64,000 nt of DNA. It comes from Shigella phage SP21535. Positions 11,458 to 57,595 of the stretch are shown here, in pieces. The first letter of the stretch is position 1. The number at the start of each line of letters is the position of its first letter. The notes beneath the pieces are model-generated. The model saw only the letters and a list, made by a program, of their open reading frames with translations. It was not told the DNA's origin and did no database searches. The position numbers and the translations under genes were made by a program. The stretch lies in sequence record PQ615101; one strand, written 5' to 3'.

Positions 11458-15618
<4,161 letters not shown>

Positions 15619-37983: not shown

Positions 37984-38271
37984 ATGAAAACTTTCAAAGA
38001 ATTTACTTCTACAACTACCCCGGTTTCTACTATTACCGAAGCTACTCTTACTTCTGAGGTTATTAAAGCAAATAAAGGACGAGAAGGTAAACCAATGATT
38101 AGTCTGGCTGATGGTGAAGAAATCAAAGGTACTGTTTACCTAGGTGATGGGTGGTCTGCTAAAAAGGATGGTGCTACAATCGTTATCTCTCCTGCTGAAG
38201 AAACTGCGTTGTTTAAAGCTAAACACATTTCTGCGGCACATCTCAAAATTATTGCTAAAAATCTTTTGTAA
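37984..38271 (+). CDS. ipI: internal protein I (capsid-targeted, injected)
   Basis: 95 aa; N-terminal capsid targeting sequence ending ...ITE before mature Ala; gene order. Confidence 0.85.
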   Translation: MKTFKEFTSTTTPVSTITEATLTSEVIKANKGREGKPMISLADGEEIKGTVYLGDGWSAKKDGATIVISPAEETALFKAKHISAAHLKIIAKNLL

Positions 38272-40662: not shown

Positions 40663-41000
40663 GACAAGAAACCGGGTCGCTACCGGTAAGTCGTCGGACT
40701 GATGTTCCCTGGGTAAGGAATTGCGTTAATAAATCTTTATGATTTGTTGATGCCCTCTTACATCACAGCAGAAACGGCGCACCGAATTATCGATTCGAGG
40801 AAATATCTTTGCCGTAAGCCGAGTAGCGTTTTTGACGGAACGTTCGGATATGGTCGAGATATGGCCTTTTAAAAATATTAAGTAGCGTCAACTGCTTAAT
40901 AACCGGGTTCGAATCCCGGCGTTTCGTACAAACACTTGCCTTAGCAGGTGGAACCCCGACAAGGTTGCCGCAAGGCTTTAGCCCCGACCGAAAGGTTGGG
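40663..41000 (+). ncRNA. structured stable RNA region (T4 species 1/2 RNA-like, tRNA-like T-arm)
   Basis: No ORF; GC-rich helices; CCGGGTTCGAATCCCGG T-arm-like element at ~40902-40918; precedes terminator. Confidence 0.4.
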
Positions 41001-44570: not shown

Positions 44571-45055
44571 TTTTAAAAACTCGCTGGTATGATTTAGATG
44601 ATGGGGATGATGGCATTCCAGTTGATAGAGTTGACTGGAATGGCTGTTCCGAAGATATGAAAAATTTGCTGATTAGGGAGTTTAGAATGGGATATCAACC
44701 AGTTAAGCCATCTACTGCAACAGATGATAAATTCGTATGTATTCATAATGGTCGCGCTAAATTAACGAACGCTGATTGGTTCACAGATAAAATTATGATT
44801 CTGTGGTATATTATTAGTCTTCCTGTGACATCATTCGTATTTTACTTTTTTATAAAAAATCCAATGGACAGAATAGGAGATTGGATTCTTTTAACCATAC
44901 TTGTTAATATTTTTACAGCAGCAATATTATCTGGGATATGGTACACGTTCATTGAAATGCCATGGCGGCTACGCAGACAACAAAAGATTTTTGATGAAAA
45001 GAAATATACTCAAAATTTAAATAACTTTATCACTGAATGCAGGAAATTAAAATGA
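44567..45055 (+). CDS. small membrane protein (paralog family member 3)
   Basis: Hydrophobic helices then C-terminus ...FITECRKLK. Confidence 0.45.
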   Translation: MILKTRWYDLDDGDDGIPVDRVDWNGCSEDMKNLLIREFRMGYQPVKPSTATDDKFVCIHNGRAKLTNADWFTDKIMILWYIISLPVTSFVFYFFIKNPMDRIGDWILLTILVNIFTAAILSGIWYTFIEMPWRLRRQQKIFDEKKYTQNLNNFITECRKLK

Positions 45056-45492
45056 AAACACTATCAGCTGGTATTATCTTTATGACAGAAGATAAAGATT
45101 TATTCATGGGACGGGTTACTGGTTCTCGTAAGCCTGGAATGATGGCACATCGCTGGGATATCCCAAAGGGCCGCGTAGAAAATTCTGATTTAAGCGCACT
45201 AGATGCAGCACGAAGAGAATGTTTAGAAGAGACTGGTTTTAGCAATTATAATCCAGACCTTCTAGAAGACCTAGGTGTATTTAAATATTCTAGTAATAAA
45301 GACTTACAGTTATTTTATTATACGATTCCAGTAGAGCATGAGATGTTTAGAAATTGCCATTGCGAGTCTTATTTTGAAAATAAAGATGGCGTTATGATTC
45401 CAGAGATGGACGCTTTTGCTCTTATTCCTCGTACTCAGTGGCAATATGTGATGGGTCCTTCACTTTACCGAATAATGAACAACCTCTTTTAA
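45052..45492 (+). CDS. nudE: Nudix hydrolase NudE
   Basis: Nudix box GRVENSDLSALDAARRECLEETGF; ATG 45052 with AGGAAA RBS. Confidence 0.8.
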   Translation: MKTLSAGIIFMTEDKDLFMGRVTGSRKPGMMAHRWDIPKGRVENSDLSALDAARRECLEETGFSNYNPDLLEDLGVFKYSSNKDLQLFYYTIPVEHEMFRNCHCESYFENKDGVMIPEMDAFALIPRTQWQYVMGPSLYRIMNNLF

Positions 45493-46023
<531 letters not shown>

Positions 46024-46027
46024 AGTT

Positions 46028-46058
46028 GTTTACTTTCTCCTAGAACTGTGATAGTATA
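46028..46058 (+). promoter_or_regulatory. early promoter stem-loop cassette
   Basis: GTTTAC 46028-46033; AACTGTGA/TCACAGTT inverted repeat around -10. Confidence 0.45.
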
Positions 46059-46100
46059 TTCACAGTTACTAATTAAAATATTTACATTTAAAGGAAACAT

Positions 46101-46575
46101 ATGAAAACATATCAAGAATTTATTACTGAAGCAGCTATTAATTCTCAAAATTATTGCTGAATCTTTTACTGATCTTTTGAAATTTAAAAAAGGACAGAAA
46201 ATTACTGCTGTATTAGATGATGGTACAGAAGTTGAGATGGATGTACAGGGATATAATTATGCAGTAGATGGAAAACTGTATAATAAATCTCATGCTAAAT
46301 TTGATTCATTTGATGATTTTGTTAATACAGTTGAAGATGAAAAAACTCGTCGATCCATTGCAACTGGTGATGCTAAGGTTCTTATGGCGCATGGACATGA
46401 ACGTATTCGCGCTAAACAGAATAAAATGGGTGAAGATAATTTCGCATTAGTTGGTTATCAATCTGGTAAACAAACTTATGGTTATCAGCGTACTGCTACC
46501 ATGTATAATAAAAATGGTAAAATCGCTTTCGTGAATAGTAAAGGTTCTATTCAGTACGTTAAATCGTTCAAATAA
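46101..46575 (+). pseudogene. internal-protein-like gene interrupted by +1 frameshift at an A-run
   Basis: MKTYQEFITEA... reads 19 codons to TGA at 46158; downstream frame open to 46575; removing one A of AAAA 46147-46150 fuses them. Confidence 0.45.
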
Positions 46576-46716
46576 TATGGGAACAACCTGGACCTCATGA
46601 TTCTGTGAGGGATTCCCGCCAACCTGTAATAAGGTCGAGCCCAAGTGCGGTAATGGGTAAATACAGAAATGGACAATTCATGCGCCATGGAATGGCCCAA
46701 ATTTAGAGAGAATAAA

Positions 46717-48175: not shown

Positions 48176-48434
48176 AGACATTAAAGGTTATAAGCCACAT
48201 ACTGACGATAAAATCAGTAAAGTGAATGCTATCAAAGACGCTGAAGTTCGTTTAGGACTTATCTTTGATGCTTTATACGATGAATTCTGGGAAGCATTAG
48301 ATAATTGTGAAGACTGCGAATTCGCAAAGAATTATGCTGAAAGCCTCGATCAGTTAACTATTGCTAAAACGAAACTCAAAGAAGCCAGTATGTGGGCTTG
48401 TCGTGCTGTGTTCCAACCAGAGGAAAAATACTAA
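48168..48434 (+). CDS. hypothetical protein
   Basis: 88-aa ORF, start overlaps upstream stop. Confidence 0.45.
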   Translation: MIEDIKGYKPHTDDKISKVNAIKDAEVRLGLIFDALYDEFWEALDNCEDCEFAKNYAESLDQLTIAKTKLKEASMWACRAVFQPEEKY

Positions 48435-48711
48435 TGGCTCAATTAAGCGCAGGGTTTGGTTATGAGTATTATACTGCCCTCGTCGTGTATCTGTTGCTCC
48501 TAAGAAAATTCAAAGTCTTGATGACTTCCAGGAAGTAGTTCGTAACGCTTTCCAGGACTATGCACGTTATCTTAAAGAAGATTCACAGGACTGTCTCGAA
48601 GAAGATGAAATTGCTTACTATGAGCAGCGTCTTGAACAGCTCAAAAATCTACATGAGGTTCGTGCAGAAGTTTCAAAGTCTATGAATAAATTGATTAGAT
48701 TTAAAGAATAA
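48434..48711 (+). pseudogene. small gene interrupted by -1 frameshift at A-run
   Basis: ATG 48434 frame stops at 48536-48538; overlapping frame open 48466-48711; one extra A in AAAA 48505-48508 would fuse to a ~92-aa product. Confidence 0.4.
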
Positions 48712-53959: not shown

Positions 53960-54500
53960 TATGAAACGATTAGTATTAGAAGTTAGTTCACTTTTTGGTG
54001 AATTGGCTATAGAAAAAGTAAATAATATGTATCGTTTGACGCAAGAAGATGATATGCTATATTTTACGCCTAGTGAAATCATTCATTTAACCCAAATTGA
54101 AAATCCTTATACTGATAAAATTGTAAGCATTAATGATGAGCATAAAATTCATTTTTATTCTTCATGCCCAGGATTTAATATTGAAAGCGAGTCAATATGC
54201 TTATCAGTTATCCATTGGGATAGTTTTATAGATAAGATTAAATATTTTTATTATTCTAATGAAAGAAAACATAGTTTAAAATGGCTTAAAAATTGCAATG
54301 CTATTATTACTAACGCTTGTGATCAGTGCGATCAGAATGATGAAACTGATACTTATATGTGTGTTTTAAAAGCTGGTGGTGACCGTCATCCGGATTTTAT
54401 TTCTATTCGTCAAAACAATGGAGAAATTTCATTATCAAAATCAGAAGCTGAAGCTATGATTAAGTATTTAACAACTGTTACACCTTCAATGAAAGGATGA
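53940..54500 (+). CDS. hypothetical Cys-rich protein
   Basis: 186-aa ORF. Confidence 0.45.
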   Translation: MPIKRINMKRLVLEVSSLFGELAIEKVNNMYRLTQEDDMLYFTPSEIIHLTQIENPYTDKIVSINDEHKIHFYSSCPGFNIESESICLSVIHWDSFIDKIKYFYYSNERKHSLKWLKNCNAIITNACDQCDQNDETDTYMCVLKAGGDRHPDFISIRQNNGEISLSKSEAEAMIKYLTTVTPSMKG

Positions 54501-57505: not shown

Positions 57506-57595
57506 TTCATAAGAGGACTTCTATGACAAAAAAGGCAGTTCAGAAATAGATTATATGGACTGCCATTAAAAAGATGACTAGAATTAAACTGGTAA

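Follow-up and report, generated by a model that had tools for sequence, protein, structure and literature searches.

An extra A in a short run disrupts the reading frame of a T2 ipIV-type gene (ip4) in a Tequatrovirus genome

Introduction

At positions 46101-46575 of the phage DNA studied here, a frame that starts with ATG soon reaches a stop codon, and the adjacent frame stays open to the end of the interval. Is this a single internal-protein gene broken by a mutation, an intact gene with an error in its deposited sequence, a gene expressed through recoding, or a pair of separate genes? The window, that is, the whole stretch of DNA analyzed (64,000 nucleotides of Shigella phage SP21535, PQ615101), is from a T4-like coliphage (Tequatrovirus), and its closest deposited genomes are those of IME537, PD112 and CE1 (approximately 97% identity over 20 kb).

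In the internal proteins of T-even phages only the capsid-targeting sequence is conserved, and it directs their entry into the scaffolding core (PMC3012670; PMC12373910). The ip genes are non-essential, and Ip1, Ip2 and Ip3 of T4 each inhibit one subtype of the GmrSD Type IV restriction enzymes (PMC12373910). Ip4 is absent from the paper that names the targets of Ip2 and Ip3 (PMC12373910), so that a role of Ip4 as an anti-restriction factor like Ip1-3 may be proposed by analogy only.

Results

Reading frames and sequence elements of the locus

Translation of 46101-46160 gave MKTYQEFITEAAINSQNYC, that is, a truncated frame on the plus strand with 19 codons followed by TGA (46158-46160). The +1 frame, when read from 46102, was clear of stops after its first codon and remained stop-free from 46105 as far as TAA at 46573-46575. 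Its translation from 46150 is IIAESFTDLLKFKKGQ...KSFK, or in a longer reading IIAESFTDLLKFKKGQKITAVLDDG...YVKSFK. The translation and the ORF listing thus bore out the original prediction of a stop soon after ATG 46101 with the +1 frame open to 46575. The two frames meet at a run of four A residues (46147-46150). Removal of one A from this run was predicted to yield a single protein of approximately 158 amino acids; a single protein does result, but its length is 157 residues (158 codons including the stop).

The elements expected for expression from ATG 46101 are in place. The sequence AGGA (46092-46095, plus strand), which lies 5 nt upstream of the ATG and is read directly as a ribosome-binding site, is kept in all aligned relatives. 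Further upstream, GTTTAC N14 GTGATAGTAT (46030-46059, plus strand) is a putative T4 early promoter, as judged from its similarity to a homologous stretch of SA20RB that is annotated as such. Codons 1-10 (46101-46130, plus strand) encode the capsid-targeting sequence MKTYQEFITE, which fits the T-even pattern MKTYxEF[IL]xE; 13 Ip4 homologues with 60-99% identity all keep M1, K2, F7 and E10. Internal starts are less well equipped. A mechanical ORF of 132 aa on the plus strand begins with TTG (46177-46575) and has no Shine-Dalgarno sequence upstream; this TTG-start form is what gene callers output for alleles that carry a 5' lesion. The Shine-Dalgarno sequence of a second internal start, ATG 46237, is weak at best.

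The locus corresponds to ip4 of phage T2

When 46030-46660 was used as a megablast query, 735 phage records matched. The best of these covered 630 nt of the 631-nt query and had a single CDS annotated there, as "internal virion protein", "Ip4" or "IpIV internal head protein". The ip4 CDSs of IME537, T2 and SA20RB are each 474 nt long and encode one 157-aa protein, MKTYQEFITEAAINSQIIAESFTDLL...; the translations of IME537 Ip4 and T2 IpIV are identical. In a four-way alignment of the window with these three genomes there was one gap, exactly at the A run, where the window has AAAA and the others AAA. Residues 17-157 of the relatives' protein are identical to the +1 frame of the window (46150-46575, plus strand, closed by TAA 46573-46575), as supported by DUF7412 and by tblastn, which matched residues 16-157 at 99.3%. 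Apart from the extra A, the window gene was identical to IME537 ip4 at 474 of 474 positions. Because the gene is otherwise 100% identical to that of IME537, the frameshift pattern is no chance effect.

The restored protein matched the Pfam family DUF7412 (PF24183) end to end, over residues 1-157, with 319.4 bits, and the 132-aa body alone scored 275.6 bits (cut-off 27 in both cases). It also matched PHROG 3155 ("internal virion protein") with an E-value of 6e-102. In the window, ip4 lies directly downstream of the lysozyme gene e (45529-46023), as does ipIV in T2; this is one of the two ip loci, which adjoin e or 57B. The e protein is 100% identical to that of IME537, nudE (45037-45492) precedes it, and ip4 is followed by vs.7, vs.6 and the remainder of that series. 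We concluded from these comparisons that 46101-46575 is, by sequence, the orthologue of the phage T2 gene ipIV (ip4). The alignment, DUF7412 and PHROG 3155 thus agree with the original prediction of a second internal-protein gene with a capsid-targeting N-terminus, frameshifted at an A run. The window copy shares with T2 IpIV/Ip4 (BBC14742.1; PF24183; PHROG 3155) the site 3' of e, the targeting N-terminus and, minus the extra A, the 157-aa sequence. It differs in a private insertion of one A at codons 16-17, which leaves 19 residues in frame.

Ip4 also resembles IPI, IPII and IPIII of T4, which are injected and inhibit Type IV restriction enzymes of the GmrSD type, in its MKTY/FxEF...E N-terminus, in the type of locus and in dispensability. 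In contrast, profile searches matched the Ip4 body only to Pfam DUF7412, and only the capsid-targeting sequence was common to another PHROG. The 13-sequence alignment gave an AlphaFold2 model of intact Ip4 that was too poor for fold comparison (mean pLDDT 49.4, pTM 0.44).

At 37984-38271 (plus strand) the window has its other ip gene, an intact ORF of 95 aa (MKTFKEFTSTTTPVSTITEATL...) that we take to be a T4-type ipI. The ip genes found at the ipI locus of IME537 (99 and 85 aa) had no match in the window. The ipI locus thus shows the known cassette polymorphism, with the 95-aa ORF in place of the IME537 genes.

The AAAA allele is private to the window

A 67-nt query centred on the A run retrieved 288 phage records, each differing from the window by at least the gap, and the AAAA allele was found in none of the 288. 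The records counted are other genomes, since the window's own genome is outside the collection. With a pattern that accepts either allele, five further contigs were recovered (three from metagenomes and two from IMG/VR), all with AAA, and no match was obtained in genome_contigs. A census was beyond IMG/VR, which held three related loci. In a large collection, the intact 157-aa protein occurred in its exact form on 459 contigs, and further intact Ip4 variants occurred on 109, 18, 12, 11 and 10 contigs. The privacy of AAAA rules out a conserved recoding site as well as two normally separate genes.

Other disrupted ip4 alleles

Including the extra A of the window, ip4 is disrupted by seven independent types of lesion. 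The others are a stop at Q5 in REP1 (OQ174500.1); in metagenome or SRA assemblies, loss of the start through ATG to ACG (three assemblies), deletion of 2 bp at nt 11-12 and an extra T after nt 39; expansion of A6 to A7 in G4507 (NC_054919); and an extra T after nt 93 in an ip4 lineage with 83% identity. One-nucleotide insertions were found in G4507, SRR20727979 and SRR23924977. These alleles resemble that of the window in that the gene is inactivated early and the downstream body is left intact, and several are likewise 1-nt insertions at short runs. However, the lesion sites are all distinct, and none of the alleles has the AAAA of the window. Some lesions are substitutions in short-read assemblies, and real loss of ip4 therefore occurs.

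Most lesions were found by an exact-sequence look-up that sees only those upstream of TTG 46177. Since this look-up is blind to later lesions, ascertainment largely accounts for their clustering in the first 50 nt, and we do not take the clustering as a sign of targeted selection. In REP1 and ERZ28657847, ip4 is located 3' of denV (Pyr_excise) instead of directly following e, which shows a mosaic organisation of the locus.

Homopolymer changes elsewhere in the window

We judged the homopolymer indels of the window against five relatives. Most are shared polymorphisms (39467, 41550, 41709, 47590 and 54292), and four are clean private changes (40977-40979, 46147-46150, 48477-48479 and 57528-57533).

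The change at 48477-48479 lies in vs.3 (48434-48711, plus strand), where a private shortening of C4 to C3 shifts the frame at codon 16. The run is CCC in the window and CCCC in four relatives; T2 has CACC, of equal length. The gene is conserved and encodes 92 aa in T2 and PD112. In the window its frame yields 15 residues and then 19 more before a stop, and the other frame keeps the remaining 77 codons intact. This stretch is covered by 492 phage records, none of which matched it identically over its full length. vs.3 adjoins vs.4, whose homologue in related contigs has the Pfam domain Acb2_Tad1_hairpin.

The two remaining changes, both private among the five relatives compared, are non-coding: T3 versus T2 at 40977-40979, in a region of tRNAs and small RNAs, and A6 versus A5 at 57528-57533, in the spacer between nrdC.10 and nrdC.9 beside a hairpin. 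IME537 has such a change of its own (13482-13895, matching window 54288-54292), a private A4 where the window, PD112, CE1 and F1 have A5, which truncates a mobD-like gene that encodes 180 aa in PD112. The IME537 case indicates that lone homopolymer frameshifts, whatever their cause, are routine in deposited Tequatrovirus genomes.

Predicted consequence for Ip4

Intact Ip4 would be carried into the prohead core by residues 1-10 (MKTYQEFITE) and later be injected with the DNA. Going by what is established for the prohead protease (T4 gp21), it is presumably cleaved after Glu10 (I-T-E/A). In the window, replication slippage may have converted AAA to AAAA, so that CAA ATT became CAA AAT T at 46147-46150. 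Translation would then end after 19 codons with the 141-residue body out of frame, and the product would consist of the targeting peptide and nine junk residues. A body made from the internal starts (TTG 46177 and ATG 46237) would have no targeting sequence and hence would remain unpackaged. The targeting sequence is joined in frame to the cargo body in all relatives compared and not in the window. As written, the AAAA allele is accordingly predicted to be null for injected Ip4, because the capsid-targeting N-terminus is split from the 141-residue body, which precludes packaging. The peptide across the frame junction of restored Ip4 would be ...AAINSQIIAESFTDLLK, and FDSFDDFVNTVEDEK is a peptide belonging to mature Ip4.

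Discussion

Real mutation or assembly artefact

Spontaneous gain of one base in a short run of identical bases is the Streisinger-type class of frameshift, classical from the genetics of T4 rII and e. The extra A of the window is likewise a one-base gain in a short run, and nothing sets it apart from that class. We favour, with modest confidence, the reading that the T2-type ip4 of the window was broken by a real and recent mutation, an ordinary knockout of a dispensable gene; it would be recent, since the gene has no other change. Inactivation of ip4 occurs in other public data, in approximately 1% of ip4-bearing contigs, and the ip genes are non-essential (PMC12373910). All structural or essential genes of the window that were compared with IME537 are intact, and the only private indels that break a frame fall in two small accessory genes, as selection on real mutations predicts. 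Further, 197 private substitutions in 26.4 kb versus approximately eight private indels is an unremarkable ratio, and a change from A3 to A4 in so short a run is no typical platform error. On the other hand, the absence of further decay, with 474 of 474 positions identical to IME537, is what an artefact would also give, and the private homopolymer frameshift in vs.3, 2.3 kb away, together with the two in non-coding DNA, may be a sequencing signature.

It is also quite possible, if somewhat short of probable, that the run in the phage itself is AAA, that its Ip4 is intact at 157 aa, and that an error in the consensus of this short homopolymer added the fourth A. AAAA was unique among all public sequences searched, the remainder of the gene does not differ from that of IME537, another homopolymer indel, also unique, disrupts the nearby vs.3, and two more unique changes of homopolymer length are both non-coding. 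Lone private homopolymer frameshifts are also present in other deposited relatives (IME537 at window 54292; A6 to A7 in ip4 of G4507). However, runs of three to four bases are seldom miscalled in a consensus, and approximately 36 kb of essential structural genes are without a frameshift. The chance that two random errors would both fall in dispensable small genes is approximately 0.2 by our own estimate, and the substitution-type knockouts of ip4 elsewhere show that the gene is lost in reality. The homopolymer pattern by itself does not separate error from mutation, because the ratio of indels to substitutions is normal. Taken together, the evidence is mixed and leans only slightly towards an extra base that is real and not an assembly error. 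In a gene known to be dispensable, the ip4 feature is thus either an ordinary allele with a shifted frame or a sequence error.

Recoding, separate genes and adaptive loss

Recoding at the A run, by a ribosomal shift into the +1 frame or by slippage during transcription, could restore a useful level of full-length Ip4. The +1 frame is open over the whole overlap, the lesion lies within an A run, and T4-type phages offer a precedent for recoding in the bypass of gene 60. Yet the arrangement in two frames was found in none of the 288 phage records or the five other contigs, and no orthologue has it; an allele so private gave recoding signals no opportunity to evolve around AAAA. A run of four A residues is much too short for slippage of RNA polymerase. 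The mRNA UCU CAA AAU UAU UGC UGA includes no codon whose P-site tRNA re-pairs in the +1 frame (CAA-AAU and UGC-UGA included), and a Shine-Dalgarno-like stimulator is absent upstream. The predicted RNA fold of 46140-46260 was not significant (z = -1.32; 20 of 200 shuffles folded equally well), and inspection by eye revealed no landing codon at which UGC could resume in the +1 frame in the manner of gene 60. With a private allele, no slippery motif and no significant RNA structure, the third option named in the original prediction (pseudogene, homopolymer sequencing error or expression by slippage) was not supported. We reject such expression above background noise, and consider recoding to a useful level very unlikely.

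Still less credible, to the point of being next to impossible, is a small leader ORF followed by an independent 132-aa gene. The 132-aa TTG-start protein is indeed called on 5-8 contigs, and REP1 is annotated with this form. However, each such contig has its own distinct lesion in the first 50 nt, and the intact 157-aa form is present on 459, 109 and further contigs. The DUF7412 model spans residues 1-157, and TTG 46177 lacks a preceding Shine-Dalgarno sequence. The annotated orthologues are single 157-aa CDSs, not the two separate ORFs that would have spoken against a frameshift.

It is also improbable that the ip4-null state is adaptive and that the independent lesions reflect selection against injection of Ip4. 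The defence of some hosts could sense Ip4, or the body made from internal starts without its targeting sequence could have a cytoplasmic role. If loss were adaptive, the window allele would belong to a wider family of variants in host range.

Under the favoured reading of a real, ordinary knockout, the phage would tolerate the null allele because hosts without the cognate defence make ip genes dispensable. The frameshifted ip4 is of little importance by itself. Annotators should record the locus as a frameshifted ip4 (IpIV family of internal head proteins, DUF7412) and not as two hypothetical ORFs. If the mutation is real, the phage would be a natural Ip4-null and a ready tool for finding what Ip4 targets in the host, in analogy to Ip1-3 and the GmrSD-type enzymes that they block.

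A fractured terminase gene in the window

Separately from ip4, we observed that the gene for the terminase large subunit, gene 17, is fractured in the window (11461-14313, minus strand) into the ORFs 14313-13420, 13454-12834 and 12846-11461. The N-terminal piece comprises gp17 residues 1-257, with the gp17 part ending ...IYIDE, and then 12 or more extra residues. An ORF for a 206-aa TnsA-like endonuclease lies between the gene 17 pieces. The C-terminal piece reads ...NNVESHN/C, after which gp17 resumes at 100% identity. This looks like a putative split intein with a free-standing endonuclease between the halves. In the 'fractured genes' described by Dassa et al. 2009 (PMC2677866), split intein halves have a free-standing endonuclease between them; the halves of gene 17 likewise flank such an endonuclease, a likeness read here from the DNA. 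No description of a split intein arrangement in a Tequatrovirus terminase was found in the literature. The same 1-kb insertion in gene 17 is present in 16 deposited phage records, including PD112, CE1, HY03, JEP6 and SG1, which are annotated 'terminase large subunit (x2)', and IME537 is without it.
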